Shown here: one piece after another, positions 18,101 to 39,100 of the stretch
Numbering within the stretch: the first letter of the stretch is position 1
Layout: the number at the start of each line of letters is the position of its first letter
Virus record (IMG/VR): IMGVR_UViG_3300032315_000647
Span: 50,746-114,745 of that record
Source: a virus
Direction: 5' to 3' (one strand)
DNA length: 64,000 nucleotides
Made by a program: the position numbers and the translations under genes
The notes under the pieces: generated by a model
What the model saw: only the letters and a program-made list of their open reading frames with translations
Databases searched by the model: none
Told to the model about the DNA's origin: nothing

Positions 18101-21100
18101 GGATAATCTTACCTTGTGCATTCACTTGTGGAATAGTGGACAACAGAAGCTTTATTGCAGAGCTTGCTTTCTTGAAATTGTCAATCTTTGAAGCGTCTTG
18201 ATAATCACTTTTGCCACTGTTATGTTCATCTCTCACCATCAGATTTTCGTCCTCATCAAATTCAATCTGATAGCTCTTTAAATATTCTTGATGTCTTTCA
18301 ACAATTGTTTCCCATTGATCCTTAACATGTTGCATCAATTGAAGAACATTGGATATATAAGGATTGACTTCTTCTTGTGTATTTTTATTCTCTCTAACAA
18401 GAGCTTGTGCTTTACGAGCTTTTTTAGCAATTGTTCTATATATTTGATATCTGAGATTGTCGTAAATTTCTTTTTTATTACGTTTTTCAACTTCAAACAA
18501 ACTCTCATCTGTCTTAATCATGTCAGTGAGAGTGAGATAGGTCATGTGTTGAATGATGTCATTCCTCTCTCTATCATTGATTCCTGCAAGACTAAGTACA
18601 GCATCTGAGTCAGCAAATGCATCCTCTACATCAATGATGCCTTGTTTGGCATAAGCAAGACTGTTTACAAGAGGTAGATTGGATTTGTAATATCCTTTAC
18701 CAATCTTGCTGAACATCTTCTCAACCTTGGAATCTGAATCACGACCAAGGAAGAACTCTTTAATAGTTGTCAACATGTCAGCAAACAACTTAAGAATATA
18801 AGGTCTTCCCTTTGCAGGTTTTTGAGGAATCTTCTTAAACTGAATGTAATCTCTAAACTCTTCAGCCAATCTTTCTTCAAGTTGTTCTTCTGTAGCTTTA
18901 GAATAGCTCACATCCTTCAGAGATGCTCTATCAAAGAACTTGCCGCTCCTAGCCCTCATCTCATCCATTACAGACTTCTGTTCTGTAGGATCAGAGAACA
19001 TCCTCCATACAGCATGGAACACTTCATGATAGACAGTGCCCACTTCAGCATTTTCATAGATGTATATTGCACCATCCTTGAACATACCCCAGGCTTGTTT
19101 ACCATTGGTAGCTTGAATGATGTTCTTTACACGATAGATAGGAACATTAGGGAAATTGGCTTTCAGCCAAGTTTCCACTTGATTCCAGTTTTCAGGAACA
19201 AATGCTTTGAGTTCTTGTTCAACAATTACACGAAGAGCTTCATCACTCTCTCCAATTATTTTTTCATTTACAGCATCTATTATAGACTGACTGATAGGTT
19301 TACCAACTTTAGCACTAGCATCAGCTACGGTTGCTTCTGGAACAGCTTCTGGAATGGTGATAACAAGTTCTTCCTCTGTTGCTCTTATTTGATCAAGTGT
19401 AGGAGCAATAGCATTGAATATTGTCTTCTTAAGTATTTCTCCAGGATCCTTACCAGCAGCTTTTATTTTAGCAACCACTTCATCAAGATCACCACCCTTC
19501 AAGATTTTAATCTTGTCAATTAAATTTGCAGGTGTTGTATCAGAAGGTGCAACAAATATTATTTGCTTTCCTTCTGGAGAAACATATATGTTTTTTGATT
19601 CTCCATCAAGAACATATCCACTAGTAGGAACAGCTACAGCTTCAGGAACTCCAACAGTGACAGTTTCAAAAGGAGGTTCTTCTGTAGAAGCAGGGGTTGA
19701 GGGAATAACTGAGGGAGCTTCTACTTTAGGAGCAGCTGTAGGTGTTGCAGGAGCACCAGGGGTGATTCTCTTAATGGTAGCCACCTTCTTCTTCTCAACA
19801 ACAGGAATTACAAAATCATCAGCTGTATCTGTTGTATAGAAATAGATGTCTGTTCTGTTTATGTCTTCCTCATTAGCAACAGGACGCATGGTGGTTGCGA
19901 GAGGGAGCTCTTCACCACTTCTCTTCTTTCCATCAGGAGTGGTGTTTGAAAGCAGATAGGATTGATAGTTCTTCCATGTTCTACTAATCACCTCACCTTT
20001 AGGAGATATGGACAATATCTCTTCGTAAGATTCGTTCAGTTGTTTTGTATAATGAGACTTAATGTTGTTGTACATGTTGGACAACAGAAGCATAATCTCA
20101 TTCTTGTTTTCTTCAAGTGATGTAGGTGTGAAAGGAAAATCCTTACCTCTACCAGAAATAGAGAGCATAAACTTACCTGTCTCAGGATCTTTCTCAAAGA
20201 ATATGCTATTATATCCTGCAGGCTTTCTTTCCTTATTCTGATCTACTGGAATACCCCAATAGACAACAGATTTCAACCAGTTGAGCAAACGCTCAGACTC
20301 AGGACTCTTGATTCCCACCTGAGGATTGAGCATGTTCTTAGCCAGCTGATGAATAACCTGATAGATGGTTTCAGCTTCTTTCTGTGTATGTTTTCTGTTC
20401 TGAAGCTTAACAAGTCCATTAGGCAACTCAAGAACTACACTACCAATAGGTGTTCTGAGTGTTGTTGTACCTTGTTCAAGAACAGCAAGATTGCTTCCTT
20501 CAGAAGGAAGTGTGGGGATGTTAATCAGTTGGCTAGATTCTAGATCAGCAGTTGAGATGAGATTTGCATCTTCTACAGATGTTCTAGTTTCGTAGATGAT
20601 TTTACCATCAGCATCTGTAACATTCTGAACTCTTCCAAAGGATGCACCAATCGCATGGCGATCACGCAAACTAGGATTTTCAAGAACAGATGTTCTCCAT
20701 GCCTTGTATTGAGCAGTTACAGAATCTACCACTTCTTTAGGAGTGTCCTTACGGAACATACTTGCATTATCATACTCAGCACCCCATTTCAATTCAGCAT
20801 CAGGGAACACTTGATATATTGCAGTGTCCAAAGGATTTGCACCTTCAGCAATAGGTTGTCCATCTTCTCCAACAAGAGATATGTTACCATCAGCATCTTC
20901 CTCCACCATTACCAGCGCAATGATTTCATCTTTCTTAATGTCCTCATTTATCTGACCAGCCTCATCCATTCTCAGACGATCTGTTAAGCCAGGGATAATT
21001 TCATCTTCGTTTTTAGATGTTACATATACACCACGAATGTTTTCTCTGTTTGGAAATCTCTCAAGATTGAATCCAAAAGTGTTAGCTCGTACTTGATGAG

Positions 21101-24100
21101 GTTTACCTCTCATCACTCCCGCTGTAGCTCTAGGAAGTATAATGGTAGATTTCTTAGCTGTAGGTTCATATTCCTTACTGAATGGTTCAGTTTGAACATC
21201 GTTATCAGCAGTGCCTAATGCTTCAGCAAGAAGTTGTTGATTCTTGAATAGTCTTTCTTCTTCAGCTTTTCTAAGTTGATAAGCATCTGCCACAGATTGA
21301 AATCTATCAAGAATCTGCTTCTTAGCATTATACTCATTTCCTAATTCATTCAACCTGCCATAAAGATCAGCTATCTCTTTATTTGCATCCTCAAGTTGTT
21401 TCTCACTAACAGCTACGTCTTTCTGTACATCCTGTAGAAGAGCATAATCAGCAAGATATTCTTTCAGAGTCTTAACTTCTGAGAACACTGGGTTATCCTT
21501 CATCCTCTCCATGCTATCCTTTATGTAGGAAGGATAGTCAGCATCAAATTTCTGCAAAGCAGATTGCAGCATAGAGATGAACTCCTTGATGGCAGATTCA
21601 ATATCACCAACCATCTTTGACAATGTATTAATATTGTCACCTGTTTCTTTGACAAGTAAGTCAATCCACTTAACTTGCTCTTTTAGTTCTTTAAGAAACT
21701 CTCCAGAGTTTTCAGGAAGCTCATCAAGGTTTTGTGCAAAGTCTTCAAAATAAGAGAGATTAAACTCAAGCTCATTTTTCTCAGCAGTGAGTTTAGCAAT
21801 CTCATCTTCAGTGTCTTCCTTCATACGAGAAAGCTTAGTAAGAGCTTTACTAGTAGTGGATAGAATTTTACTAAACCTAATATTTTGACGACTGAGTTCA
21901 GGATACTTAGCTTCAATAGCTTTTTCTCTTTTTGTACGAGCTTCAGTTGCTTTTACCTCACCTATCTTTCCTAAGTCATCTTGAATGCTTTGAAGATCTT
22001 TCTTCTTATTTTCAAGCTTACGATTCACTTCCTCAAGACGAGATCTGGTTTCCTCTTCAAGCTCTACAATAATTTCAAGACGATTACCTCTATTTCTTGC
22101 AAGTGTATCTTCAGTTTTCTGACGAGCAATCTCTTCAGGAGATGTAAATTCCTGTCTAGCTTCTGCTTGTTCAGAATTTTCAATTGTCCCTACAACTTTT
22201 ATACGAGCCTCTTTAAATCCTTCCTGTACTTGGAAGTATTCATTCTTAAGAGCTTTTCTTTTGATTTGTCCTTTATCATTTTTATAAACAAAGAAAAGTT
22301 TACCATTATCATATTCTATTCTTCCTTGTTTCTTTCCTCCAAAATTTTTTCCAAAGTTGTATTCAAATATTTCGTTCTTGTGTCTACGGAAATAGTTAAC
22401 GGTTTTATTACTACGAACTTCATCAGCCCTAGCAATTTTATAATCAAAAAGAACATCTTTAGATATGTCTCTTATCTCTCCTTTGTTATCCTTAATCTTG
22501 ATTGTACCATCTGCATTCTCACCAAGTATAGTGAGAGCACTTATAGTGATAGGCACCTCAAGTCCATCTTTATCATAATCAAATGCCTTTCCTACAAAAT
22601 ACTCAACTCCTGTAGCAAGTAAACGATCTTTTTTATCACCTTTAATTGTAATGAGTTTTGCACCTTCAGGAGCTTTTTCTACATCTTCTTGTTCTTCAGC
22701 TTTTTCATCTTCTGGTGTACGCTCATACTCCTTGAATTTCTCAGGAGTCTTTTTTATTTCGTTATATTCTTTCAGGAACTTATCCCTACGAATACTCATT
22801 TCAGCCACATCCTCAAGAGATTGAGCAATGTCATCTTTCTCAACGTCAGAGATGGTCTTCATGTTTGCAATGCTATCAATAGCAGCATTGAAACTATCCA
22901 CCTTACCTTCAATAATATCCTGGACAACACTATCAATGTTAATACCTGCAGCAGCAAGTTTAGGAGTGAGTTTAGGGATACGAACATCATAATCAGCCAC
23001 TTTAGAAGCAGCATACACCATCTGATCAATTACAGATGAAGGATATACACGTTTTCCTTGTTCATCTATTTGACCAGCATATCGTAAGTTGAGAGACTGA
23101 TATAGAGATTTTACATTATCTGCAGTTTGTTGCAGCGATATAACACGCTGCAGAAATGCCTCTCTTGTATCTGTAGGAAGAGCTTTTCCCTCAGCTACAA
23201 GTTGAGCAAATCCTTCATCTGTACTAGCCAGAGCTCTATAGTCATTGATATCAGCTTGCACCAAATCAAACCTACCATACTTAATACGAGGAGAGAGATA
23301 GTTAATTACATAATCTGCCTCCTTATCCTTACTATTCAATACATCACCTTTCTTCAGAAGTTCTTCTCTTTCTTGTTGAAGAACAGTTCCACGGTTGACA
23401 GAATCAATTGTATCTTTAGTAAAGTCTGAAAGTCTATATTTATTGAACTTCTGAACAGCATCAACTGTATTCTTGCTTTGTTCTACATCCTCTTTATACT
23501 TTCCTCTGCCTTGCATAATTGCACCAGACAAGCCACCAATAATAACACTCTCAATACCTTCATCAGTTCCAAAGGTTTGTTGTAACCCTTCTGAAAGACT
23601 GCTGAGAAAGCTTGTAGGTTCATTATTGTTCTTCTTATTGAAATAGTCTTTAACACTTACACCAATTGCATACTGAGCACCTTCTTCAAATGCTTCAGAT
23701 GTAGAAAATGTATAAGGTCTGATTTTGTTAAGAGTTCCTAAAATCTTACCACCAACAGAAGGTTTTGCAATATATTTTCCACCCTCTTCAACAATATTTT
23801 TTGTTTCTGATATAAGAGAATTAATCATTCCCTTTTCAGCAGTGAATGAAGAACCTAATATTTTAGGAAATTGAATATAGTTGGTTGCTGTAAGCAATCC
23901 AACATTAGCCCAGAAAGATGAATCACCTACTTGTTCAGCTTTTCTATTAATAGCGTCCATATCCTCACCTTGAGGATATACACCATTGTTCTCAGCCCTA
24001 TATTCTTCAATTAATCTATCCCTTTCTTCATTTAGATTCTGCAAAGCTTCAAACCCAGCTTCACCTGTTGTAGCTAGTCCAGAAACAACAGCTCTTCCTC

Positions 24101-24941
24101 CAGGGTTTAATACTTTATAAGAGCTGAGGAATTTATCAGAAAGAGATTTAATTTTACCATACGTATCAGCCACCTTATTAGCAGAAGCAAGTCCTGCTTC
24201 TGTAGCAGCTAACACTTCAGCTTGTTTTCCAATTGATACAAGACGAGATATACCAGGAAGTGCACTAAGTCCTTTGATACCAGCAGCATATACACCTCCT
24301 GACAATGCTGCACCAGCAGCGTAGCCAAGATTTTTTACAATACCATTCCAAAGGAAGTTTGCTGTAAAAAGATTATCAGGAGAATACCAAGCTGCATCTT
24401 TCTCAACATTAGTGTAATAGTTAGGAAGAAGATTATTATCAAGTTCTTTATTAAGATTATCTAGTGCCCTGTTCATTTCATTATCGTAGAAAGAAGAGGG
24501 GTTACCAGTGGCTATCCAATTACCAACACCATTAACAAGTCCCACCGTACCTTGTAAAAAGGTGGTACCTGTAAGAACAATTCCTTTCCCAACACCATTG
24601 ACCATTTTCTCAGCCCAAGTCTGACCTTGAGCATATGCATCTTCATTGTTATAATCACCAGGTACAAATGAATTATATCTAGGATTAGACATTTCACTAA
24701 GAGGACGCATGATAGATCCGCCTCTCATTTGACCTGTGGAGGATTTTCTAACAGAAGCATCAAGTGCCTGAAGAGCAGATACTGATTCAGTTCCTCTACC
24801 AGGACCTTCAGGTGTAGGATTATTAAGACCTCTAAAGTCAACATTAGGAAGTGGCTCTGGAGCACCACTAGGTTTATATCCACCAAATTGTTGTTCTAAA
24901 CCTGATCTATCAAGTAACGGTCCTTGTGGATTCTCTGCCAT
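12171..24941 (-). CDS. Giant virion-packaged DNA-dependent RNA polymerase (crAss-like vRNAP) with zincin-like domain
   Basis: 4256 aa; catalytic GSDFDIDKL (~14920-14945), GYRIPTQKQNS and ETDGAG motifs of crAss two-barrel RNAPs; YHEVFHAV HExxH motif (~19010-19040); Gly/Ala-rich hydrophobic N-terminus. Confidence 0.92.
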   Translation of the reverse strand: MAENPQGPLLDRSGLEQQFGGYKPSGAPEPLPNVDFRGLNNPTPEGPGRGTESVSALQALDASVRKSSTGQMRGGSIMRPLSEMSNPRYNSFVPGDYNNEDAYAQGQTWAEKMVNGVGKGIVLTGTTFLQGTVGLVNGVGNWIATGNPSSFYDNEMNRALDNLNKELDNNLLPNYYTNVEKDAAWYSPDNLFTANFLWNGIVKNLGYAAGAALSGGVYAAGIKGLSALPGISRLVSIGKQAEVLAATEAGLASANKVADTYGKIKSLSDKFLSSYKVLNPGGRAVVSGLATTGEAGFEALQNLNEERDRLIEEYRAENNGVYPQGEDMDAINRKAEQVGDSSFWANVGLLTATNYIQFPKILGSSFTAEKGMINSLISETKNIVEEGGKYIAKPSVGGKILGTLNKIRPYTFSTSEAFEEGAQYAIGVSVKDYFNKKNNNEPTSFLSSLSEGLQQTFGTDEGIESVIIGGLSGAIMQGRGKYKEDVEQSKNTVDAVQKFNKYRLSDFTKDTIDSVNRGTVLQQEREELLKKGDVLNSKDKEADYVINYLSPRIKYGRFDLVQADINDYRALASTDEGFAQLVAEGKALPTDTREAFLQRVISLQQTADNVKSLYQSLNLRYAGQIDEQGKRVYPSSVIDQMVYAASKVADYDVRIPKLTPKLAAAGINIDSVVQDIIEGKVDSFNAAIDSIANMKTISDVEKDDIAQSLEDVAEMSIRRDKFLKEYNEIKKTPEKFKEYERTPEDEKAEEQEDVEKAPEGAKLITIKGDKKDRLLATGVEYFVGKAFDYDKDGLEVPITISALTILGENADGTIKIKDNKGEIRDISKDVLFDYKIARADEVRSNKTVNYFRRHKNEIFEYNFGKNFGGKKQGRIEYDNGKLFFVYKNDKGQIKRKALKNEYFQVQEGFKEARIKVVGTIENSEQAEARQEFTSPEEIARQKTEDTLARNRGNRLEIIVELEEETRSRLEEVNRKLENKKKDLQSIQDDLGKIGEVKATEARTKREKAIEAKYPELSRQNIRFSKILSTTSKALTKLSRMKEDTEDEIAKLTAEKNELEFNLSYFEDFAQNLDELPENSGEFLKELKEQVKWIDLLVKETGDNINTLSKMVGDIESAIKEFISMLQSALQKFDADYPSYIKDSMERMKDNPVFSEVKTLKEYLADYALLQDVQKDVAVSEKQLEDANKEIADLYGRLNELGNEYNAKKQILDRFQSVADAYQLRKAEEERLFKNQQLLAEALGTADNDVQTEPFSKEYEPTAKKSTIILPRATAGVMRGKPHQVRANTFGFNLERFPNRENIRGVYVTSKNEDEIIPGLTDRLRMDEAGQINEDIKKDEIIALVMVEEDADGNISLVGEDGQPIAEGANPLDTAIYQVFPDAELKWGAEYDNASMFRKDTPKEVVDSVTAQYKAWRTSVLENPSLRDRHAIGASFGRVQNVTDADGKIIYETRTSVEDANLISTADLESSQLINIPTLPSEGSNLAVLEQGTTTLRTPIGSVVLELPNGLVKLQNRKHTQKEAETIYQVIHQLAKNMLNPQVGIKSPESERLLNWLKSVVYWGIPVDQNKERKPAGYNSIFFEKDPETGKFMLSISGRGKDFPFTPTSLEENKNEIMLLLSNMYNNIKSHYTKQLNESYEEILSISPKGEVISRTWKNYQSYLLSNTTPDGKKRSGEELPLATTMRPVANEEDINRTDIYFYTTDTADDFVIPVVEKKKVATIKRITPGAPATPTAAPKVEAPSVIPSTPASTEEPPFETVTVGVPEAVAVPTSGYVLDGESKNIYVSPEGKQIIFVAPSDTTPANLIDKIKILKGGDLDEVVAKIKAAGKDPGEILKKTIFNAIAPTLDQIRATEEELVITIPEAVPEATVADASAKVGKPISQSIIDAVNEKIIGESDEALRVIVEQELKAFVPENWNQVETWLKANFPNVPIYRVKNIIQATNGKQAWGMFKDGAIYIYENAEVGTVYHEVFHAVWRMFSDPTEQKSVMDEMRARSGKFFDRASLKDVSYSKATEEQLEERLAEEFRDYIQFKKIPQKPAKGRPYILKLFADMLTTIKEFFLGRDSDSKVEKMFSKIGKGYYKSNLPLVNSLAYAKQGIIDVEDAFADSDAVLSLAGINDRERNDIIQHMTYLTLTDMIKTDESLFEVEKRNKKEIYDNLRYQIYRTIAKKARKAQALVRENKNTQEEVNPYISNVLQLMQHVKDQWETIVERHQEYLKSYQIEFDEDENLMVRDEHNSGKSDYQDASKIDNFKKASSAIKLLLSTIPQVNAQGKIIPSSIGGALLLPVGKTYISLMNNLHNSASIEEMLENLRKMAENDVNYRTLYKRITKRSWEEKGVDLGQIKTQHGLQLISSLWNTFKKQNPSVKNVFILENGEVVVGEANLASAGEQIRNEYINSIVFKAKEGKGFFTYNEKEKAFVGDPSKLAKVTNLATPAGLTSFLKELGIPFSVEDVNKMTSDQYKKFKEATLGIKASIAKTEKIATFSGKALGMRGRLLELALVRAAISNPEFSSTYFSVSGERTQSYIGTNAASDLRTFLSKVKVFNKESVGGTQYSYLLTDSFAKNSNILSRMFASNGKIKEGSEDLFEIGYVGGTVDEAKGKRKESSRLTYRQRLVQELNLNVKGWYLNLVPGDASLEWMIKLGNAISAASVRKGMGDINEIFKGYFLSELELVREDRPVAKGRKSKEMRFFKGILGDLHNKVVSATGTPEQVYKDFEKEINRKIEDFMTTDMNKLKIVLSRYGILKETEEGFSIENTELPKNMTEKELNVELMALTANYMIANIEMHKLLYSDPYQYEDELKRIKNFNSPRQAIINSSPKMNTAFNNIWNKGFSSGDIGFTKFTRDYFRTATHADVIGIIDLHNYEKFKETDGAGIINMRANRHFRIRASDWNSDEERQYRYDVAWEKNDKGLDMSPEERVLLAAGNPGIQSAYTPIKPIVSGSKLAKNGTASSYNNVMLDKFALYPLSYRIMKQINSDANAIKLYEKMQKEDIDYIVFASSRKVGAQDPHETYIDGQFNNTPYSEKNITNVPFSIMSIQAEVPSKDTSDVTRGSQITKLITLDFMEAGVPVDFFPGQPFNNRYKAWYKLSDGEKLERSKLYRNIKENQDLLEALIEEGYKTTLERLGIKETITKDKDGKIIERKYEITDFSKAAQTLRDEMLKREINDNASDALAGFLQGKVVLEATPAYQQVRNVIYSIADKQFISPKINGGMKVQIPSTLLESGVRKLKDGFYESEVLKFYEKDGKRVAEVMLGRWFDSPLSDEELINYLNNTEEGQKVLSGVGYRIPTQKQNSVDVIVIKKFLPKEFKDSVVIPAALVQKVGSDFDIDKLSIYLKNVYIKNGKPKLIPYFGIGQQAIDKFKELFDKGEFLSPEQMRELDRYIAEETLLMEDEMDDAAGKFLKSIFGNFFSEEELTAEFMKDVRSKDQIVKKLYKKSLENGYIQSMENLITSDENYENLIKPNSAEVLKKLSAKIAQKTIGQTFDYKNVENMLDRTFMSSLRHAFVTGKYAIGIAAVNQTNHSLNQRQPIYIDKNRLDRASEDDRFWLTDNPDIKFEKYNTIEVDGKMVPTLSMIKNKAGEYISDIIGMFIDGYVDISKGPWIMELGATPNVASTWLFLVKLGVPVNTVAYFMNQPIIRDYLRTIESAGYSWLFIDDFVELMGYRYEQEMSETELDRRLQSFKIPSETALEKNLGKLPSDMSAQEKTDQYLMLKEFLKYAKMAEHMFHVTQGSNYDTASFNDPYLIFKKQMQQIKAQNTIISSVDTLLSNSFVGKLAQNINQVRDAFAQILKSDSPKVRGVIQKVLKPYVNMSDRDFVKVAQKAVADLFDWAVQTDQNLNKQITDILINDGGVGREVVNFVNQLKESNDPLANNEIIRIIEGIPSMRAAKGGVNNVKLNMAENKVYDQNNVIYAFRELRDRLKDDKNPLYDRIVTLAILQSGLSSSPISFTSLIPYEDFEKIYNATLSKLEGLSNLDDFYKLGVFERNNWNNDDITPYLKAALITSKKTGKKYYNPSMKFLPNPVQDAVAKGEIPPVLTRSKNNREASFDYIVYTWEKENDLLTKEEIEQANARGIELYKVIKDKKAKMRKAGDFSFMNKGLFRKVYDNSGTPLEHSDQEGKKYFVYKAVNAWGDSFRANEFYDVDHKSVIENGFIQVEDVDNNVIISKFLQDPKSYKRSVPTQQAPTAPRVPLTFEKAFSPERQKQILKNYSAKYKMTEDEALGEIMECITLEGQMAIKKLKECY

Positions 24942-27553: not shown

Positions 27554-27630
27554 CAAATGTATTATTAACGATTATATTTTCCAAGAGAAATAACAATTTT
27601 TGGTAAACGGCTATAACTGAATTAGTTATA
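27554..27630 (-). promoter_or_regulatory. Promoter (-7 TACATTTG at 27554-27561) with upstream tandem TAAC-N7-GTTA palindromes
   Basis: TAnnTTTG box; TATATTTTCCAA at 27573-27584; TAACAATTTTTGGTA at 27591 and TAACTGAATTAGTTA at 27614. Confidence 0.65.
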
Positions 27631-30391
27631 GATTTTTAAGAGCTTTTACAATCGAACCGTTCTTACCTTTCTTTTTAGGAACTAAAGGAGGTGTTGCAAG
27701 ACTTGGTTGTTCACTATCACCTGTGTAAATAGTTGGGATGTTGAACTGACCAAGTTGGAAATTCTGAGTTCTAAAATTAGGACTGTAACGATAATTGTAC
27801 ATGTTCTCATAAACTTGCAACTCTCTATTCTGCAATTTGTTCTGAGCATATTTAGAAGCAATTGAATTGAGAGCAGCCTGTGTTGTAGCCTTTGTTTTAC
27901 TCATAGCTTCAGACTGCCTTACATATTGCTTATCAAGAATTTCTAGATTTTGAAGCTGTGTTTTATTCAGAAGATCTCTGTTCTCTCTTGAGATTTGATC
28001 TCTCACAGCTTGATTTATACGGAATTGCTCACCTAATACCTTCTGGTTTGCAGCATATTTTTGAGCAGCTAATTGATTTTGAAGAGCTGGATTGTAACCA
28101 ACAATTCTCTGTTGTGATCTGAAGGTAGCTTCGTTTTCATTTAACACATCCTGAAGAGATACATTATAAGGAGTGCTTAATTGAGGCTGGAACTTCTGGG
28201 CCTGAACAGGTTGTAGTTGATTGGTAGATAGTGCAAACATTTCACCACGCAACTGATTAGGATCCAATTCTTCAACATCACTAGGTCTTATGTATGGAAG
28301 AACTTGACTGATTAAATCTGAAATTTTAGATGTTCCGTATTGAGGAATTTTAATGTTATCTCCAGGTTTAATAGTGGTTGTTCCAATTGTTGTAACAAGT
28401 GGAAAATCTGGTATGCCTGAAGTTCCATCTTCATATTCAACTGCTGCACTAGCAGTTTGTTCTCCTAATTTACGATCCTCTAGAAGCTGTACATTACTAT
28501 TAGTTTCTTTGGCAAGTTTATCAAAAGCTTTTTGAAACTTTAAAACATCAGCTTTATTCTTAGGATTGAAGTTTGTCCAATCATACCACGGATTATTTTT
28601 CTTCAATGTTTCAATATCGTCAAGTGTTACATTTCCATAAGCAATGTTTGTTTGTCTTTGTCCTTTAGGAACTTCAGCCAATGCTGTTGCTCTTTTTGGT
28701 TTTTTTGTACCAGCTTGAGCTTTTGAAATAAATGCACCTTCTCTAGCCATAATTGTTCCTTTATCTGTGGCTTGTAGTCCAAATTCCTCAACAGTGTCGT
28801 TCATAGCTGTTTGCAAAGCTGCAGCATCCATTTTATTCTGAGCTATGTCTTTAAGCTTTTGATTTCCACCATCTATCTGAGCTTTCAATGTATTGAAAGC
28901 CAATTGATCATAAGGAGTAATTACATCAAGCTCATCAAGTTTATTCACTGCACTGTTCACCTTCTGATTAATCTTATTTTCATTCTTTGAAAGATCAGCA
29001 ACGTATTTCTTAAAATTGAGACCGTCAGCACCAGGAAGCATACCTTTAGGAACTTTTAGATTACCAAATACTACTAAACTACTATCACCACCAGAACCAT
29101 CTTTCATCTTCATAGCTGGCTCATTACGCTCAACTTCTACAGGACTATTACCAAATGTTACACCTATACCAGTGTTACCTTTTCCATCAGATTCTTCATG
29201 AGACTGACCTTTGAACATAATTGTTTCTCCATCCTCAGGAAGATATGGATTGTAAGACATAGGTTCAGCATATCCACCCCAATGGGTTTGGAGTTCTCCA
29301 CCTTCTTGCATCATCGGTCTTTCTGTAGACATAGCTCTTGCACTAGGGGGAGTGTAATCTTTTAAGTGTCCACCAGCCCTAAGCATATCAGCATCCTTAG
29401 GAGACTTCAGCAAGTCTTTCAATTTATGTTCTCCAAAGGTAGTGATTACTTGAGGTTGCCATGAATTACTCACCCATTTATACTCATCATCAATGTTCAC
29501 AGTTCCACCATCTTTCATGAACGAACCAAACTGACTAGCGAGTGCTTGATTCATAGCACCTTGTTCCATATTTTGTAAACCTTGCTCCATGTACTTTTTG
29601 GTATCTCTACCAATAAAATACTCTGGTATAGCACGTTGTAACCCTAGTCCTAAATCTAACACTTGCATTCCAGCATCTATCATTGTGCCAGTTTGAGCAT
29701 CTTGAATATATCCTCCTTCTTCAAACTGTTTAAGTCTACTACTTTCATCAAGAGGTTCATATCCAAGATTGTCATACAAAGTCCCAGGACTATAAGTATT
29801 CTGTATTTCAGCACCATTCTTCGCCATACCAAGAACATCATATCCTCCACCATAAGGCATCACTCCCATTTGATCAGCCTCAATAGGATTGTCTTCAGGT
29901 CTTACATATTGACGTTTTGCAAGATCAGGAGTTTGTGAAGCGGCTTGTTTAACTATTTTACTAATATCTAAAAACTTCTTAGCCTCTTTTCTTTGTTTAA
30001 AAGCATCAACAACAGCTCCTACATTTTGAATAGTTTTAGCTAAAGGGGTTCCTCCAAGAGCACCAAAGTTGAACTTTCCAACATTTTTTGTTTCTTGAGG
30101 AGTCATTCCTGTAATATCATATGCAGTGGGACTCACCTGACTTTCTAAACTAGGAAGACCTTGTGGCGTATAATTTAGAGAAGGTGTTCCACCGAACTCT
30201 ACAGGCTGCATGAACTTAGGGGCAGAAGCATTATATTTAGGAAGTCCTTTTAAACCCCACTGTTCAATGCCTGTTTGAGCTTTTTTAAACTCTTTACCAT
30301 GAGCTTTCATGAATGCCTCTTCTGTAGGATATTTCTTATAGAATTCCTTTTCAGACTTTACACCAGCGAGTTTGAGCATTTTTGCTTTCAT
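27626..30391 (-). CDS. Virion cargo protein (crAss cargo-protein-1-like) with repeated xxxG(G) motifs
   Basis: 921 aa; GQSHEES...VEVERNE...VVFG block; Gln-rich coiled-coil C-terminus; many AQTG/MKDGG/MQEGG-type motifs. Confidence 0.7.
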   Translation of the reverse strand: MKAKMLKLAGVKSEKEFYKKYPTEEAFMKAHGKEFKKAQTGIEQWGLKGLPKYNASAPKFMQPVEFGGTPSLNYTPQGLPSLESQVSPTAYDITGMTPQETKNVGKFNFGALGGTPLAKTIQNVGAVVDAFKQRKEAKKFLDISKIVKQAASQTPDLAKRQYVRPEDNPIEADQMGVMPYGGGYDVLGMAKNGAEIQNTYSPGTLYDNLGYEPLDESSRLKQFEEGGYIQDAQTGTMIDAGMQVLDLGLGLQRAIPEYFIGRDTKKYMEQGLQNMEQGAMNQALASQFGSFMKDGGTVNIDDEYKWVSNSWQPQVITTFGEHKLKDLLKSPKDADMLRAGGHLKDYTPPSARAMSTERPMMQEGGELQTHWGGYAEPMSYNPYLPEDGETIMFKGQSHEESDGKGNTGIGVTFGNSPVEVERNEPAMKMKDGSGGDSSLVVFGNLKVPKGMLPGADGLNFKKYVADLSKNENKINQKVNSAVNKLDELDVITPYDQLAFNTLKAQIDGGNQKLKDIAQNKMDAAALQTAMNDTVEEFGLQATDKGTIMAREGAFISKAQAGTKKPKRATALAEVPKGQRQTNIAYGNVTLDDIETLKKNNPWYDWTNFNPKNKADVLKFQKAFDKLAKETNSNVQLLEDRKLGEQTASAAVEYEDGTSGIPDFPLVTTIGTTTIKPGDNIKIPQYGTSKISDLISQVLPYIRPSDVEELDPNQLRGEMFALSTNQLQPVQAQKFQPQLSTPYNVSLQDVLNENEATFRSQQRIVGYNPALQNQLAAQKYAANQKVLGEQFRINQAVRDQISRENRDLLNKTQLQNLEILDKQYVRQSEAMSKTKATTQAALNSIASKYAQNKLQNRELQVYENMYNYRYSPNFRTQNFQLGQFNIPTIYTGDSEQPSLATPPLVPKKKGKNGSIVKALKNL

Positions 30392-30392
30392 G

Positions 30393-32309
30393 TTATTGAT
30401 ATTTGTCTAACCAGCCACCTTTTGTAGGCTTGTTATAATTTGTAAAGTTAAGAAGTTGATCAAGCTTTTCAATGGGTTTAGCATCAGCTTGATTTATGCT
30501 AATTCCTTTTTTAGCTATAGGAAACTCTGTAACGTATTCACCATCAAATTCATAATCCTCTCCAGGTTCCATATATTGCATATCTCCTGTATTGGATATT
30601 CCTATTAATGGTTCATACACATCCTCCATAGTGATGTCTGTGGAAGGGATGATGACAGGGTTGCCCCAGTTCTCAGGGTTCCAATATCCTTCAGGGTCTA
30701 CAGCAATTTCTCCACCATCTTGAAAAGATTTTGGTTGTTTACCTAAATCAAATATAGTGGGAACATTAGATGTAAATTTTTTAGATTCTTCAGGTTGTTC
30801 ATAGAGTTTTGTGTATGGAGAAGTTTTGATTGCCTCTTGAAACTCTTCTTCAAACCCAGGGTCTTTATTAAGTAGTATCTGATTTATATATGTAGATGTT
30901 TCTTTAGGAAGCATCTTCATCCAATCTAATGATTTATATATATCTGTATTTTGTTTTGCTTTATCAAGAGCTTTGGTCAAATTACCCATTCCCCAATTAT
31001 AACCAGCAAGAACTTTAGCTAGTTTAACCTCTTCCGATTGATTAGGATTATTTAGAGCTTTTCTATTATACAAATCATCCATTACCCACTTCTGCACTTT
31101 TACAGAATATTCAGGATCAGTAAGGTCTCCAGGTTTTTCTTTTGTAGCATTGAGATAGTGCTTGTGTGTAATAGGCATTATTTGTGTAAGTCCAACCGCA
31201 CCTACAGGAGAAACAGCTTCAGGATCAAGTCCTGACTCTCTGAATGCTTGTTTAATCAAAATATCTTTTGGTACACTTTTTCCATCTTGTGCTATCTCTA
31301 CACCATCTCTACTGATAGTTTTAGGCTCAAAATCAAGTCCTGCTTGATAGTAGGACATCATTTTACCACCGTTATTATACTCTTTAGTGTTCTTACTAAT
31401 GCTTTTAATTTTCTCTTTAAGCAAAGGTTCAATTATGCTATGAGCTTCATTCTCTACAGTTCCTTTTTTAGTATATGGTGTTGATGTTTTCAATTCCGCA
31501 AAGTCTATGTCAGAATAGTCTAAAGGAGAAGTATCCTTACCATATTTCAACTTGTTCTTCAGGTCTATGATAGGTTTCTTTACATATTGTGGTAAATCAT
31601 TGTTTAACCATTGCGTTCCTTTTTCAATAAAATTATCTTTCATTTGTACATGATGTGCCATTTCAGCAATCCATGTATCAATATTGTTTGCGTATATAGT
31701 TTTTGTCAAAGGGTTATAATGCCCTGGGACATTTTTAAAAAGTCCTTCTCTAATTGCAGGATTGACTTTTGGAAAACCATATTGTTTACCAAGAGCCATT
31801 ATTCCTGAGTACGTTCCCATCTCACTATCATATTCTGATTCTGGATTACCTACTTCTTTTCTGATTTCATCTAATATGTTGTTATAAAAATCTCTTGTCT
31901 GTTTATCTTTTGATCCAACAATAGTTATTTCAGGAAGATTTCTTGAATCAGTAAAAGTTTCTTTTTCAGTGATGATTGGTTGTTTAACTCTTGTTGAATC
32001 TGCAACAGCTTTTTGCTTTATTCCATTCTGAGCACTAGCCTTTGTCTTCTTAGCATAAGGACCATTACTAGGAGCTCCATGTCTTGCATACATATTTCCT
32101 ACAGCACCTGGAAGATTACCACCCATTGCAAACTGTCCACCCCATGCAGGACTGTAATTACGTCCTTTAATATTGTTACCCATCCCTACAAATCCTGGAG
32201 GTAATGTAGCATCAACATCATTGGGATTGGGCTTTTTGCCATAGTTATCCTTGGTCTTTTGCTTTAATACACCACCACCATTTTCATATTTATCAAGCCA
32301 GTTGTTCAT
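30393..32309 (-). CDS. Virion-associated protein with soluble lytic transglycosylase (SLT) domain
   Basis: QAFRESGLDPEAVSPVGAVGLTQIMP and LAGYNWGMGN are the SLT ES/GLxQ/AYNxG motifs (~30860-31270). Confidence 0.8.
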   Translation of the reverse strand: MNNWLDKYENGGGVLKQKTKDNYGKKPNPNDVDATLPPGFVGMGNNIKGRNYSPAWGGQFAMGGNLPGAVGNMYARHGAPSNGPYAKKTKASAQNGIKQKAVADSTRVKQPIITEKETFTDSRNLPEITIVGSKDKQTRDFYNNILDEIRKEVGNPESEYDSEMGTYSGIMALGKQYGFPKVNPAIREGLFKNVPGHYNPLTKTIYANNIDTWIAEMAHHVQMKDNFIEKGTQWLNNDLPQYVKKPIIDLKNKLKYGKDTSPLDYSDIDFAELKTSTPYTKKGTVENEAHSIIEPLLKEKIKSISKNTKEYNNGGKMMSYYQAGLDFEPKTISRDGVEIAQDGKSVPKDILIKQAFRESGLDPEAVSPVGAVGLTQIMPITHKHYLNATKEKPGDLTDPEYSVKVQKWVMDDLYNRKALNNPNQSEEVKLAKVLAGYNWGMGNLTKALDKAKQNTDIYKSLDWMKMLPKETSTYINQILLNKDPGFEEEFQEAIKTSPYTKLYEQPEESKKFTSNVPTIFDLGKQPKSFQDGGEIAVDPEGYWNPENWGNPVIIPSTDITMEDVYEPLIGISNTGDMQYMEPGEDYEFDGEYVTEFPIAKKGISINQADAKPIEKLDQLLNFTNYNKPTKGGWLDKYQ

Positions 32310-33175
32310 TACTTATAAGAAATTTGAGCAGGTGTATAAATGAATTGACTAACGAGATGAGCATCATGTCTGTTATCAAGGATGTGCCTAACCTTCAGTT
32401 CTTTAGCCCTTAACGGTTCCTTCTTAAAGGATCTTTTGCCATAGTCCATATTGGATTGGTTTACCACCTTATCTATAGACAATGATTCGCATGTACGTAC
32501 AAACAGAGGTTCTTGTTTATTCTTCACCAATGACCAGAAAGTATTGTATTGGTAGAAGTTATCACTCTTAGTGAATGTTATGGTTTTACTTTCTGTTCCA
32601 TAGATTGGATATTTCATATAATCTTTCAGGTTGTTGATTGGTTTTGCAACCAGTTCAAGCACTCCTGTAGATTGTTGACCGTTGTACAACACTGCCTTAT
32701 TAAACCAAGCATTGTCAGTTTCTACCTTGCGATTGTCATCAGATACGCCATCTGTATCAGGAAAATACTTATATGCCTTTGTGTAATCCTTAACACACTG
32801 CAATATCTCGTCATGATATTGATATGCAAAAGGATATTCAATGATGTAGGGTTCTATGTTCCCATAGAAGTAGTTATATATCACTGGATTTTTCAGGTGT
32901 CTCCAGATACAAGCTGTTGTTGTCTGCTTATATCCTGCAAATGCTAAATCATATGATGTCACTGTTCCAATTGGAAAAGTTTTCTTCTTTTTACATTTTC
33001 CAGTGGACTGTAAAGTGATTAGTGTAACATCATCACTAACACTGTAGCTAGTTCCATCAATCATTTTTTCTTTAGAAACATCACTTGCTATGATGTTTCC
33101 AAATTGATCACTGATTGTGAATGGGCCAACATTTGCTGCTGAACTAGTTAATTTTATGATGATTGTTTTTGACAT
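32309..33175 (-). CDS. Putative separated C-terminal part of the muzzle/tail stabilisation protein, with a small N-terminal beta domain
   Basis: IWRH...YNYFYG...PYIIEY...FNKAVLYNGQQSTGVLEL resembles the C-terminus of crAss-like stabilisation proteins as I recall them. Confidence 0.55.
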   Translation of the reverse strand: MSKTIIIKLTSSAANVGPFTISDQFGNIIASDVSKEKMIDGTSYSVSDDVTLITLQSTGKCKKKKTFPIGTVTSYDLAFAGYKQTTTACIWRHLKNPVIYNYFYGNIEPYIIEYPFAYQYHDEILQCVKDYTKAYKYFPDTDGVSDDNRKVETDNAWFNKAVLYNGQQSTGVLELVAKPINNLKDYMKYPIYGTESKTITFTKSDNFYQYNTFWSLVKNKQEPLFVRTCESLSIDKVVNQSNMDYGKRSFKKEPLRAKELKVRHILDNRHDAHLVSQFIYTPAQISYK

Positions 33176-33186
33176 CTTATTCTATT

Positions 33187-36100
33187 TTAACATGATAGGG
33201 TTCCACAACTATTAGCAGAAGATTGTGCTGTAACATAAGGAGAAGTTGGTGAAGTCTCTGGACCAAGTTCATATTGGTATCCATCATCACCACAAACCCA
33301 AGATTGTGTAATAGGTGATAGGGAGTATATAATTGATTCATTCACCCCACCATTCTGTACACAGTTCAAGTATTGTGTAGCAAGATAGTAACGTTCTCCA
33401 GCAGTTGTAGTTGTTGTAGTTGTGGGTGGTTCTGTTGTAGTGGTAGTGGTAGTTGTTGCAGAACAATCAAACACACTTATTATTACACCACTTGAATTAG
33501 TTTCATAACAAATATTGTTGTATGTATAAGCTATTGTCTGATAGGGTGTTCCATTTGAATTATACAATATACAACCTAATACAGGAACCTGACAGTTTGA
33601 ATATTTATCACCTGTTGGAATTCTTGCTAATGGTACAGGGCAACAATTTAAGTTCTTACCTATATATCCATCAACTAATAAATACAACACTGTTGTAGTT
33701 GTAGTGGTTGTTGTAATATTACTATTTTCACAATCTACACAAGTCTCATATACTGTCGATGGTACATTTGCAATTGGTTCACCACTAGATGTGTCAGTGA
33801 TGAGCCAACATTTTCCATCATAAAAGAAACTCTGTCCAACAATTCCTCCATCATTTGATAAGAAGAGCGCATTTTCAAGAGGATTGCTACACCATTGAGC
33901 GTTATAAATATATTCAATTAGTTCTGTAGTAGTTGATGTGGTTGTAGATGTGGAACTAGAAGTTGTAGAACTTGTTGTTGTAGTTGTTACTTCAATAGTT
34001 GTTGTAGTGGTTGTGGTCGTAGGTTCAGTGGTGGTTGTTGTGGTGGTTGTGGGAGACTCAGTAGTGGTGGTAGTAGTGGTTACAGGTTGTGTGGTTGTAG
34101 TGGTGGTAGTTGTTATAAATTCTGTAGTTGTAGTTGTTGTAGTGGTAATAGGTTGTGTTGTACTAGTTGTTGTTGTTACAGGTTCAACAGTGGTGGTGGT
34201 TGTTGTAGTTGCAGGTTGAGTTGTAGTGCTAGTGGTTGTAGTTGTGATAGGTTCAGTTGTGGATGTAGTAGTTGTAGTAGTAATGAGTTCTGTAGTTGAT
34301 GTAGTGGTGGTAGTAGAAGGAGGTTCAGTGGTAGTAGTAGTTGTAGTGGTTGGTAATTCTGTTGTTGTAGATGTTGTTGTAGAGGGCATATTAGTTGTTG
34401 ATGTAGTGGTTGTAGTGGTTGATGATGATGTACTTGTGGTAGTTGTTGTTACACAACTATTTTGACATTCAGTCGTACCACCTGTAATGATCAAACCTGT
34501 ACCTGAAGGAATGTCCCTACTACATACATTTATAGATGAACCATTGTCAAGAATCTCAGTTGTGGTTACACCTGAACAACAATCAGTCCACTGAGCAGTT
34601 TGTTGCACACCACTTGAATTCAGGATGCTGTATTCATAGCAAACTAAAGGTGCTTCGGTGGTAGTGGTAGTGGTTGTAGTTGGTGTTTCTGTTGTGGATG
34701 TGGTTGTTGTTGTGGGTGTTTCTGTAGTGCTACTAGTTGTTGTTGTAGTGATAGGTGCGATGGTTGTGGATGTAGATGTAGTGGTGGTGGTGATTGGTGG
34801 AATTGTTGTAGTTGTTGTTGTGGTTGGTTCTATAATTGTGGTTGATGTGGTAGTAGTGGTAATTGGTGATTCAGTTGTACTTGTAGTGGTTGTGGTTGGA
34901 ACTTGAGTTGTTGTTGTACTAGTTGTAGTGGTAGAAGAGGATGTAGTTGTTGTGCTTGATGTGCTAGTGGTAGTAGTGGTGGTGCTGCTTGTAGATGTTG
35001 TAGTAGTTGTAGATGTACTACTGGTTGTAGATGTAGATGTGTACTGTATAGCAGTGGTTGTGCTCGTGGTACTAGGAATAGGACCAGGAGTTCCCAATAT
35101 TACATCAAAATCATCACAACATCCATTTATACCAGAATAGAAGAAATTGTTTTCTCCTATGTACCAGTTTGGCAGATAGCTATGGAAGCTTATCCAACTT
35201 TTTGTATTAAAGTTAAAAGATACTGTCCAACTTTTATTACAGAAATATCTGTCATCTGTTAGATATATCACCTCACGTATGGAAAGTGAATCGTACATTT
35301 TATCAATGTAGAATTCATTCTCTTCAGCATCATATTTTACATCAGTGGTCTTTGGAATATAATCAAGTTTTGTAATAATCACCCTATCATACTTACTATC
35401 ATATACACCATGTAAACCAACTCCTGTGAAATGATTATCTGTAGGTACATTAGGAAAGTAACGCAATATTTCAAAAGCAAGATGGTCTGTAAAGAACCTG
35501 TTCATTCCTGATCCGAATGCAGATAGATCTACAGCTTGTGTACCAGTGATTAAGAAAACTTGACCACGTTTAGCATCTATTGTCACTTGTCCTTGAGGAA
35601 TCTTCAGTAACATTTTGTTCTGTGTTCCTACATATCCCAAATCTGTTTCTGCAAAATCAATAGGAGGTGCACCTCTAAAGAGTGTAGGGCTTCCTACGTA
35701 TGCAGCTTGAGGATTGCTTGTATCTATCGTAAGGAGGTTATTATACATAAGTGTCTTGTTCTCAAAGCGAGCAAGAACAGCTTTGTTTTGAATTCCATCT
35801 AACGATATAAGATTGCCATAGTTTTGAGGAAAGTCATAATAAGACAGAGGTCTGTATATCAACCAACTATTCACTCTGTTATCAGAATCAATGTTCTGAG
35901 GATCAGAATACACTGCTCTGAAGGGATAATATGTGAAACAAGGTTTATCCCAATCAACTGGCAGATGAGTGAATGTGTTTTCTCTATTCTGTTTAGAATA
36001 TGTGGTGTTATAGTAATACGTATTGTCCTGAGCAATGGGTACAGAAGTTTCTTGGAGCCAACTATCAGGAATTGCTGAACTAACACGAGGCCAGAAGTCT

Positions 36101-39100
36101 CCTTCTGCATTGTTGAATGCTTGGCGTAAATCTACGTTTACAGAGGATTCACAATAGAAGTTAGGGATACCGTATGCAAACAGATACATCTTTCCATCAT
36201 AAAATGTTCTGTCAGGGTTTAATACTGGAGGAGTGGCGTTAGGATCAGGCTTGGGAAATTGACTATTTGGACAGTCAAAATAATGTGCCTTTATAGATAT
36301 GATGTTAGTTAATGGATCAAGTGCTACAGTGGGATCAAAATTAAAAAGTACAGACCTTGCTGAAAACCAATATTTAGGATAGGCCACATTACCTATTTCA
36401 TCATAGAATATATCACTGTCATCAGGAGCTCCCACTCTATTGTCTATAAAGAAAGGAAGCTTTGTCTTGAATGTAAATCTATTAATAAATGTATCACCAC
36501 CAAACACAACATCGGTGTTAGGAGTGGTGTTATCAAGAAGTTGTTGATATCCTGTATCTATTGTTTCATAAGAATATATCTGTCCCCATTGGTTAGGGAA
36601 GATAGTTTTCATACTTCCGTAATAAGAAACAACCTTTATTTCAGACTGTTTCTCTGGTGAGGAGCATAGATTTCTTTGTGAAACCGTATATCTAGAATCA
36701 TCAGTGATAGCAGGAGTTATTCCTCCAACAAGAAGGTTTGGTGTGTTTTGTGCATACGGTAGTGCAGATAACGTTTCCTTTGTTTTTATATATACAGAGG
36801 ATTCTCTATTGTAATTGTTTACATCAAGATCATCTCCTGTGTTTTGAACACCTGGAATCAAATATCTAGCAATGTCTAGAGATCTTTGTTTAACTCCTAA
36901 GTTGTTATCAACGTTTGCTGAATAGTCATAGTTAGCTATGCTATTGAATGAATAAGTGTAGTTCCTTCTAGTGATGCCGTTGATGTATATAGAGAGATAT
37001 GCTTGATATGCAGTGAATAGTGCAACAATATCAGTGCCTGCTATATTTTCACTAGATGTTAAAGCATCTAACTGAGCTTGGTATGAAAGAAGTTTGTACA
37101 AAGCATGTTCTTGCACTTGTACATGATGACCTCTTCCTGCACCAAATATAGCACTCTCAATCTTCAGAACATTTCCTAAGAAAGGTTGTCCAAAGGATGT
37201 TTCAGGAGAATTGAATACATATCTATATTTAGAGGAATCAGTATCGAAAGCCTTCAGTTGATTTGGAAGACAGTATTCATTAGCACCAACACTTCCATCA
37301 GACAGTTGTCTAATAGTGTACCCTCCTACATGCGATCCTACACTAGGGGATGTTCCAATTTTAACTTGTAAAGTTCTGTTCTGTCTTGTAAGTAGTAAAA
37401 ATGATTGTACATTATTGTATATATCTACATACGAGAAGTTTGCAAATATACCATCACATGATACATAATATGTATCGTATTGTAGTACAATTGGATCTGC
37501 TAAAAATGTACCACCGCTACCAGGAACAGGAACAGGTGTGGTTGTTGAACACTGTGTATATTTTTGGTTAGCAAACATTTCTGCTGTCTGCAAACTATTG
37601 TCAGAACAGCTTGTATATTCATAATATCCACTTGTTGCACAAGTGAATTCAAATGTCAGACATTCTTCATTGTAAGCATTGTTTTCCTCTAACAAGAAAG
37701 GATCTTCTCTAAGATCATTATATGGATAGTTAGGAAAGTAGTATTCTGTTTCTTCTCTCTTATACTTACCAATATTCCTCAGTATTCCCTTTGCTACAAT
37801 AGATTTATTAGTGGATCTGTTACCTCTAACTATCTTGAATCCAGCAATGTTTTCTTTTTGTTCAACTGTAAGATTTGATAGAGAAATCAAAGATTCTATC
37901 TGACTGATGTCAATCTTCACTCCTATTGGGAATACACTCACATCCTGCATAACAACAGGAATATTTGGAGAAAGAGTGTAAGCCCCACTTTCAAATATAG
38001 GACTAACAAGAACATCAGGAAACTTGTGGTGTCTGATGGGAGTGTTTGCAAGATCACCCCACACTTCCTTATTGCAAGGGTAGAGATCTGTGGATTCCCA
38101 ATATGCAAAATCTCCATATTGATATGGAGTGGCATTACCAATATTAACTCCTGTTGCAGACCCTGTTACAGATGCAGTGTTATAGATCTTCCAATAAGGA
38201 GAATATCCCACACCACCAGATGTGTAATCAGGAGTGCCTATGAAATCAGGATTTGTATCAGGAACATCTGGTTGAGAAAGCTCATTTGCATTCTTTATTC
38301 TTCCTGGGATGTGGAATCCGTCTGTTTGTTTACCATTCTTAAGTAGGAACACTATTTCAAAAGCATACACTTCATCTCTTAGATAACCTCTAAGATTAGT
38401 GGCATTCAACTCATCTGCATAGTTTTCATCTGCAGGAAGTTTGTATGTTTGCCACTGAAGAGATATTTGATTAGCAATGCCTTGATAGTTTACACGATCA
38501 ATAGATGTAAGATTGTCCCATATCAAAACATCTTGTGCATTAGTGATGTCTTGTGCAACATCATAGTATGGGAACTTTTCAAATACATCATCAATACTTA
38601 AACGGATCTGTGTAACATTCTGACCTGTGTAAGTGATTTGTCTTTGTACGTCATTAATATCATACGTTCCTACCAACTCTACAGAGGTGATAGCATTTAT
38701 TGTTTTAATGACAGCCAGATTGAAATTCTGGTAGAGACCAGTGTCCTCAAGATTTGAAACATTGATAATAATGGACTTTCCAACAGGATAGTTGAAATTC
38801 GGTGTTGTTATGAACTCATCAGCAATTGGTGTTGGGTTTGTAATAGAATAATATGATGTATAAGGATTGCCTTGAGCATCACTATATTGTATTGCAAATT
38901 GATAAGTACCAGCAATTAGATTTCCTGTACTCGTAACATCAACTATTTCTAATTGAGGAATCTTGAAATTAGGTTGAATCTTGAGTTGATTACAATCAAG
39001 ATCATCTGTGTAACTAGCGCTACAGAAGGGAGTTCCAGACTTTAAGATCTTTGGAACATTATCAATATCTAAGTATCTTCTAGAATTATATCCGTCAGTC

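Follow-up and report, generated by a model that had tools for sequence, protein, structure and literature searches.

Injected polyvalent proteins with shuffled domains are already known (Iyer, Burroughs, Anand, de Souza and Aravind, 2017; PMC5512222), from a study in which crAss-like phages are not mentioned. In crassviruses, genes for ejected cargo proteins are known to follow the muzzle gene (Bayfield et al., 2023; PMC10172136). The ejection proteins of crassviruses are still structurally unresolved, and a 2026 study of the N4 ejection proteins calls this an open need (PMC13434306). Here we analyse a window of 64,000 nucleotides (positions 50,746 to 114,745 of the IMG/VR record IMGVR_UViG_3300032315_000647), which belongs to a crAss-like phage and forms the right-hand portion of a virus record that is complete at 114,745 bp and carries direct terminal repeats. 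Two minus-strand genes directly downstream of its muzzle gene encode proteins of 638 and 921 residues, both punctuated by short motifs that end in one or two glycines. In the family of the 638-residue protein these motifs bound three fixed insertion slots in a conserved scaffold, and each slot receives varied guest domains. In the reading that we prefer, and to which we give about even weight, the two genes encode ejected (cargo) proteins and the motifs belong to connectors that serve as hinges and docking segments, marking out permissive slots in an ejected protein of the polyvalent kind.

The relatives of the 638-residue protein are mosaic: they range from 374 to 1,116 residues, carry other domains, and many match the window protein over only about 17% of its length, with an identity of about 80%. 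A scaffold of roughly 240 residues is made up of the columns that most of 120 sequences share, which runs from a WLDKY-xxGG start through module A (containing AWGG-xxxxGG-SLPGAVG and KKTKASAQNG), connector C (containing EMKYYQEGLDFKPKTISQDG) and a beta domain E to a KPTKGG-WLDKY end. Bare scaffolds of 199–258 residues occur as complete genes in related viral contigs. Across 76 related loci the family open reading frame (ORF) terminates in WLDKY in most cases, and it either starts with the WLDKY motif or has the motif after an extra N-terminal domain. One such module of about 45 residues (AKEILHDKSVHG-PLT-KQR-FFGAIAGG) stands before the first GGWLDKY in the homologues P0135, P0138, P0212 and P0232; it is common among relatives and is lacking from the window protein.

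To locate the guests, a bare scaffold was used as a phmmer query against 120 homologues, a mapping that is independent of anchor patterns, and insertions of at least 40 residues were counted. All 111 lie at three scaffold points except one, which follows VAQIG: 38 come after AWGG-xxxxGG (slot 1), 45 after KASAQ[ND]G (slot 2) and 27 after KTISQDG or ISKNGG (slot 3). A second count used anchor patterns on 163 distinct proteins and considered inserts of more than 60 residues. These close with a fresh copy of the motif in 59 of 60 cases at slot 1 (typically DFAMGG), in 56 of 56 at slot 2 (typically YQNGG or SAQNGQ) and in 51 of 51 at slot 3 (typically QKQDGG), where the closing copy lies 5–9 residues before GYW. 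The inserts form at least 20 sequence clusters, one of which is found in two slots; the cluster count is approximate and its largest cluster mixes slots, probably since some inserts hold duplicated parts of the scaffold. Pfam names SLT, ART-PolyVal, His_Phos_1 (histidine phosphatase) and GNAT domains among the guests, most of which have no Pfam match. In the window protein slot 1 is empty, slot 2 holds residues 130–313 and slot 3 holds an SLT domain. An earlier, sequence-only reading of this DNA had proposed that foreign domains are slotted into the protein at its motifs, and the gain and loss of domains among orthologues bears this out, with three slots and a motif copy at the insert edges. 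The same comparison lends partial support to the view that the 638-residue protein is a modular, polyvalent cargo protein, presumably injected.

That reading had listed the motif as 19 five-residue strings (9 in the 638-residue and 10 in the 921-residue protein), all of which are present, each once in its protein. Their last glycines stand at residues 12, 64, 96, 315, 324, 336, 343, 533 and 602 of the former and at residues 41, 193, 227, 235, 296, 341, 365, 552, 561, and 912 of the latter. As a general pattern xxxG(G) is nearly uninformative, the 19 having been picked from 129 glycines (53 and 76), and it is in tighter forms that the recurring signal proves real. A comparison with the other proteins of the genome divides in the same way. 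Cross-validation of a position matrix, with the list of one protein for training and the other protein for testing against the remaining 125 ORFs of the genome, gave a weak result in which the listed sites rank at the top (Fisher p 0.05–0.6; Mann-Whitney p 0.04 and 0.0125), while two tighter forms, chosen post hoc after inspection of the data, are enriched. AQxG occurs 5 times in the 1,559 residues of the two proteins (shuffle mean 0.58) and 4 times in the other 34,319 residues of the genome; [FYMLIW]-x-[DENQKR]-GG occurs 6 times (shuffle mean 0.97) and 13 times, respectively. None of 2000 shuffles reaches either count, and the tight motifs thus stand 6- to 9-fold over shuffles. There is no enrichment of [ND]G dipeptides in the two proteins. 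The motif set is not one five-residue code, and consists of at least three sub-motifs (AQxG, hydrophobic-x-polar-GG and GGWLDKY) within longer conserved connector peptides.

Conservation in relatives follows the listed glycines. Across 120 homologues of the 921-residue protein, conservation is 89% at these glycines and 53% at the remaining ones (p 0.04). Among 16 orthologues at about 50–65% identity, G193, G226, G295/296, G340/341, G364/365, G552 and G912 are invariant, as is N911, and long stretches between them cannot be aligned. The motifs are thus conserved beside hypervariable sequence: column identity is 2% after KAQTG (10 columns) and 16% after KAQAG. Alignments break directly after these strings, with 62 breaks at residues 42–43 after KKAQxG (119 homologues), 103 at residues 236–242 after DAQTG and at least 15 at residues 563–568 after KAQAG, so that at KAQxG a conserved block gives way to a variable one. 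The hydrophobic-x-x-GG form usually marks the return to conserved sequence. Relatives of the 921-residue protein number more than 2,000. The weak matrix test and the flat [ND]G count are what might be expected if the motif were a chance pattern picked by eye among the 129 glycines; this idea is, however, already contradicted by the enrichment over shuffles, by the conservation of the listed glycines in 120 homologues and by the coincidence of insertion points with motifs in 111 of 111 cases, and we find it barely credible.

The predicted structure of the 638-residue protein places the motifs outside its folded parts or at their edges. An AlphaFold2 model built with a 48-sequence alignment contains three of these, at residues 130–313, 345–505 and 535–600 (the last all beta), separated by segments with a predicted local distance difference test (pLDDT) score below 50 (residues 1–27, 38–129, 314–343, 507–533 and 600–638). 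All of the listed motifs fall within the low-scoring segments or at their edges, and four of the six domain edges lie no more than 3 residues from a listed glycine, which random sets of nine glycines achieve in 123 of 20,000 draws (p ~0.006). It is in these segments that most near-invariant columns of the family are found. Module A scores below 50 at residues 1–27 and 38–129, yet holds most such columns across 120 homologues, and connector C is common to about 115 of 119 homologues. Conservation combined with predicted disorder is the usual signature of peptides that fold upon binding.

Both enzyme cassettes described in the sequence-only reading are bracketed as it had claimed. The SLT fold (residues 345–505) lies between IAQDG (339–343) and FQDGG (529–533), and its assignment as a lytic transglycosylase, from sequence and model together, is solid: VIA-align gives Z 13.2 to MltC and Z 7.0 to the SLT portion of chain 6yt5_G of T7 gp16, and Foldseek matches agree. 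The zincin-like block (residues 130–313) does stand between SAQNG (92–96) and YNNGG (311–315), while the zincin label finds only partial support. In the model, which covers the whole protein, the helix bearing the motif comes after a sheet of three strands, and structural neighbours in the Atlas comprise SprT-like, ImmA/IrrE, M78, MPTase-PolyVal and LPD1 proteins, at TM-scores of only 0.35–0.44; the fold searches against the PDB used the whole model, and their matches were dominated by the SLT domain. In place of HExxH this domain has [AS]EMAHH, and all 20 aligned carriers have [ASGD]E[MI]AHH, the first His occurring in none. Residues 130–313 have no Pfam match, and the MPTase-PolyVal model PF18818 finds no match in the whole genome at E up to 10. 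The third fold, domain E, is the most widely shared module of the family and is 48.5% identical to a protein of Leptolyngbya phage Lbo-JY46. In XAI97386, a protein of that phage (495 residues; L078:8974-10461), the E beta domain (NVDPMGYWN…) comes directly at the start and a lysozyme/SLT-like segment at the end; given this start, the E domain travels without modules A and C in the cyanophage.

Taken as hinge and docking connectors, the glycine-ending motifs (KAQxG, hydrophobic-x-x-GG and GGWLDKY) would be the ends of conserved connector peptides, which are probably flexible hinges and probably fold only on binding, either within the virion (portal, tail barrel) or within the ejection channel. 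They would define three permissive slots from which a folded domain can be looped out without breaking the scaffold. The 638-residue scaffold protein (its scaffold roughly 240 residues, predicted disordered and conserved) would then carry two guests, a zincin-like fold and a lytic transglycosylase, and these enzymes may be packaged and injected into the host together with the scaffold.

The duplication of motif copies at the edges of inserts, which in some lineages is exact (SAQNG on both sides), also resembles a target duplication. The motifs might thus be ordinary flexible linkers and recombination scars, the cassettes moving between homologous scaffolds by recombination in conserved flanks and the motif being inherited with its module and serving as nothing more than a hinge; module A is itself duplicated in many homologues, one insert cluster is found in different slots, and GG hinges are common between domains. 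However, few parts of the family are as well conserved as the connectors, at about 80% identity where the rest cannot be aligned; the hydrophobic and polar positions preceding GG are conserved as well; and inserts use only two points in a disordered stretch of 129 residues. A DNA-level recombination signal was looked for at the glycine codons and not found: their choice is not homogenised, with GGT and GGA at 0.50 and 0.42 in the motifs and at 0.43 and 0.47 elsewhere, and the two WLDKY ends of the 638-residue gene differ at synonymous sites. These two observations argue against a purely DNA-level recombination signal and indicate that selection acts at the protein level. The proposal that the motif recurs is borne out. 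AAT and GAT are somewhat over-used in the motifs (n = 24–25, in related sequences). We consider linkers and scars a possible explanation, though an unlikely one.

For the 921-residue protein, support for docking comes from a comparison with crAss001 gp45, cargo protein 1. The two share a position downstream of the muzzle gene and upstream of large genes that are placed as RNA-polymerase-associated. BLAST aligns residues 260–424 with gp45 340–475 (E 0.017), and hhalign aligns residues 364–480 with gp45 427–525 over 96 columns (E 4e-4, probability 35%) when a 120-member alignment is compared with a diverse 151-member gp45 alignment obtained from a search of representatives. The aligned pairs include GGELQTHWGG with GGWLNTQ-GG, GQSHEESDG with GGSHEENP, and PVEVERNEP with NLVEQGEVV. 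Residues 424–555 of gp45 constitute the Pfam family PF25725 (crAss_CARG1), which gp45 itself matches at E 2.3e-66; this hidden Markov model (HMM) matches neither the 921-residue protein nor the 8 homologues of it that were searched, nor anything else in the genome. Because the Pfam HMM does not detect it, we regard the 921-residue protein as a probable counterpart of cargo protein 1 and not as a demonstrated member of its family.

In crAss001, gp45 residues 425–552, starting AFGGWLNTQGG, form a compact domain that is ordered on the portal wing in cryo-electron microscopy (cryo-EM; PMC10172136). Since residues 364–480 of the 921-residue protein align to this part of gp45, the segment MQEGG…HWGG would correspond to the first ordered residues of a portal-bound domain, and by this homology a role as a binding tag, which had been one of two proposals for the motif, is plausible for one instance of it. 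The gp45 family has conserved AxGG islands within otherwise gapped regions. A lineage-specific insert of about 160 residues in crAss001 gp45 (residues 221–380; L001:11988-14516), absent from 79–99% of 150 diverse relatives, ends in IAKDGG and holds a small module (LRLAGLHGNESVRRKVLAKYPSLKAF) that resembles the N-terminal helical domain of the 921-residue protein. Most relatives of the 921-residue protein have a Gly-rich, membrane-helix-like segment (columns about 370–440 of alignment A1; TatA in some source annotations), which is deleted in the window protein. The post-muzzle proteins of Lbo-JY46 carry MLQAGG, SRQNGG, YFQTGG, GFQQGG and KAQIG.

Other searches were less informative. With tblastn against 50,697 phage records there was no match for the 921-residue protein, and for the 638-residue protein only SLT domains and the E module in Lbo-JY46 were found. 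The profile of the 921-residue family gave no meaningful match to PDB sequences, and hhalign none to the single gp45 sequence.

The same crAss001 structure bears on the other proposal for the motif, that of a di-Gly protease site. Under this reading a maturation or post-injection protease would cut after G or GG and release the cassettes from a polyprotein, much as adenovirus and African swine fever virus process di-Gly sites or as has been suggested for polyvalent proteins that process themselves. The motif does flank every guest domain on both sides; WLDKY junctions are found at gene termini and also, in fused forms, internally, which is the pattern to be expected were cleavage to recreate the ends of separate genes; about half of the family has the zincin-like cassette; and metallopeptidase processing of polyvalent proteins has been proposed (Iyer et al., 2017; PMC5512222). 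However, gp45 425–552 is one continuous cryo-EM density that runs through three GG motifs (PMC10172136), so these are uncut in the crAss001 virion. Cutting at every motif would shred the bare scaffold into pieces of 6–30 residues, and some motifs stand 2–3 residues from the start of a protein or 1–2 from its end. The zincin-like domain has no HExxH in any member, is absent from many relatives and does not match the MPTase-PolyVal HMM. No protease was found in a search that covered the MPTase-PolyVal family only, which does not establish that one is absent. The continuous density, the shredding and the terminal motifs disfavour the protease site, and we judge such processing improbable.

Several points weigh against the motifs being hinge and docking connectors of ejected proteins. 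The 638-residue protein is placed in the virion by gene context only, and for the 921-residue protein the BLAST and hhalign scores and the missing PF25725 match make for a weak link to gp45. When bare scaffolds were compared by hhalign with the 921-residue and gp45 families (E 0.05–0.25), no significant similarity was found beyond short motifs, the resemblance being collinear and not significant, e.g. FQDGGEIAVDPEGYW against FMKDGGTVNIDDEYKW. The AlphaFold2 model of the 921-residue protein is poor (pLDDT 49), and disorder may partly reflect shallow alignments. The insertion events are not phylogenetically independent, the left motif copy was partly imposed by the anchor patterns in the count of 163 proteins, and Gly-rich linkers are common at domain edges anyway.

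Table 1. Features of the muzzle-proximal genes in the window and of their neighbours (residue numbers refer to the protein named).
Feature	Window coordinates	Strand	Remarks
Ring protein 1	39522–40493		Pfam; upstream context
Muzzle protein gene	33187–39525	−	Pfam PF25731 crAss_MUZ, E 1.1e-29
288-residue ORF	32309–33175	−	
638-residue protein, scaffold module A (1–129)	31923–32309	−	Starts WLDKY-ENGG; AWGG-QFAMGG = slot 1; KASAQNG = left edge of slot 2
638-residue protein, slot-2 cassette (130–313)	31371–31922	−	Zincin-like topology, pLDDT 76–94; closing motif YNNGG
638-residue protein, connector C (314–344)	31278–31370	−	GG-KMMSYYQAG-LDFEPKTISRDG-VEIAQDG; pLDDT <50; its end = left edge of slot 3
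638-residue protein, SLT cassette in slot 3 (345–505)	30795–31277	−	PF01464, E 2e-17; pLDDT 80–91
638-residue protein, spacer (506–534)	30708–30794	−	pLDDT <50; ends in FQDGG = right edge of slot 3
638-residue protein, small beta domain E (535–600)	30510–30707	−	pLDDT 81–90, six strands; closed by IAKKG (598–602)
638-residue protein, disordered conserved tail (601–638)	30396–30509	−	pLDDT <50; ends KGG-WLDKY-Q
921-residue protein, helical N-domain (1–41)	30269–30391	−	Small; ends KKAQTG, hypervariable stretch next
921-residue protein, conserved island (186–235)	29687–29836	−	MAKNG, FEEGG, DAQTG; then variable Gly-rich region
921-residue protein, residues 290–363	29303–29524	−	FMKDGG, LRAGGHLK, approach to MQEGG; weak alignment to crAss001 gp45 340–430
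921-residue protein, residues 364–480	28952–29302	−	Begins GG-ELQTHW-GG; hhalign match to gp45 427–525
921-residue protein, residues 545–561	28709–28759	−	IMAREGAFISKAQAG; then variable region, up to ~280 residues in relatives
921-residue protein, conserved helical C-terminal domain (690–921)	27629–28324	−	Helices at 747–880; ends KGKNG-SIVKALKNL
4256-residue ORF	12171–24941	−	
1757-residue protein	6896–12169	−	
1801-residue protein	1377–6782	−	

Downstream of the muzzle gene the ORFs measure 288, 638, 921, 865, 4256, 1757 and 1801 residues, and the order muzzle / 288 residues / 638-residue family / 921-residue family / 865-residue family is the same in four of four related loci with a listed gene order (Table 1). 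The portal is encoded at window positions 52461–55043. The 288-residue ORF, also present in those four loci, has a match to a PHROG virion structural (muzzle-like) family that is confined to the C-terminal end of the family (positions 1587–1776 of 1783). No Pfam model matches the 4256-residue ORF with E up to 0.01, and its position would make it a candidate for the virion RNA-polymerase-associated giant protein. A weak GNAT acetyltransferase match in the 1757-residue protein (residues 54–144, E 0.003) is below the Pfam cut-off. The 1801-residue protein is 28.5% glycine, matches the collagen triple-helix repeat PF01391 (E 5e-165) and is probably a collagen-like fibre. Among cultured phages the one relative found was Leptolyngbya phage Lbo-JY46, at 25.5% identity across the whole major capsid protein, which indicates that the window represents a distant crAss-like lineage.

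We found no earlier description of a scaffold that is conserved and disordered and carries WLDKY at either end, of three fixed slots, or of a duplicated glycine motif around every guest, and WLDKY occurs in no relevant paper of the literature searched. A scaffold with three discrete slots gives a concrete handle on how crAss-like phages choose and carry protein cargo. Its more than 20 groups of guest domains, mostly without a Pfam match, are candidate injected effectors, and the slots suggest where reporters might be placed for following protein ejection in laboratory phage-host pairs. A bolder reading, tentative and rather unlikely in our view, is that the scaffold with its WLDKY ends and glycine connectors serves crAss-like phages in general as an address for loading and ejection, such that any domain in a slot would be packaged and injected, the guests being early host-takeover or anti-defence effectors. 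If this were true, the family would be a natural plug-in system for payload delivery; if the motifs are only hinges, it nonetheless clearly exemplifies the shuffling of domains at fixed points within a virion protein.

The locus can be compared with four described systems. The adenovirus protease and pS273R of African swine fever virus cut viral polyproteins at Gly-Gly-X. There, as here, a short motif with GG at its end forms the domain boundaries; in contrast, the homologous crAss001 segment is uncut in the virion, and no cognate protease was found here (only MPTase-PolyVal was searched for). T7 gp16 and other podophage ejectosome proteins are likewise internal virion proteins with an SLT domain, ejected before the DNA to open the peptidoglycan, but in gp16 the SLT has a fixed place at the N-terminus of a large, folded core protein, whereas the SLT here is a guest that can be swapped, carried by a short disordered scaffold. 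With crAss001 gp45 the 921-residue protein shares the position after the muzzle gene, a Gly-rich variable N-terminal half, a conserved middle domain, a helical C-terminal half and GG-punctuated motifs, although the pairwise similarity is marginal and, between the muzzle and cargo protein 1, crAss001 lacks an equivalent of the SLT-bearing scaffold protein. Finally, like polyvalent proteins, the 638-residue protein belongs to a late, virion-associated gene neighbourhood and is a multidomain protein of highly variable architecture, presumed to be injected with the DNA; at least two unrelated domains are combined in variable architectures, and relatives carry ART-PolyVal, a peptidoglycan-cleaving domain and a zincin-like fold. 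The MPTase-PolyVal domain, which is frequent among polyvalent proteins and not obligatory, was not detected in the genome. Unlike in polyvalent proteins, the guests of the 638-residue family occupy three fixed slots, all in one conserved disordered scaffold that has WLDKY at either end, and each guest is bracketed by the repeated glycine motif.

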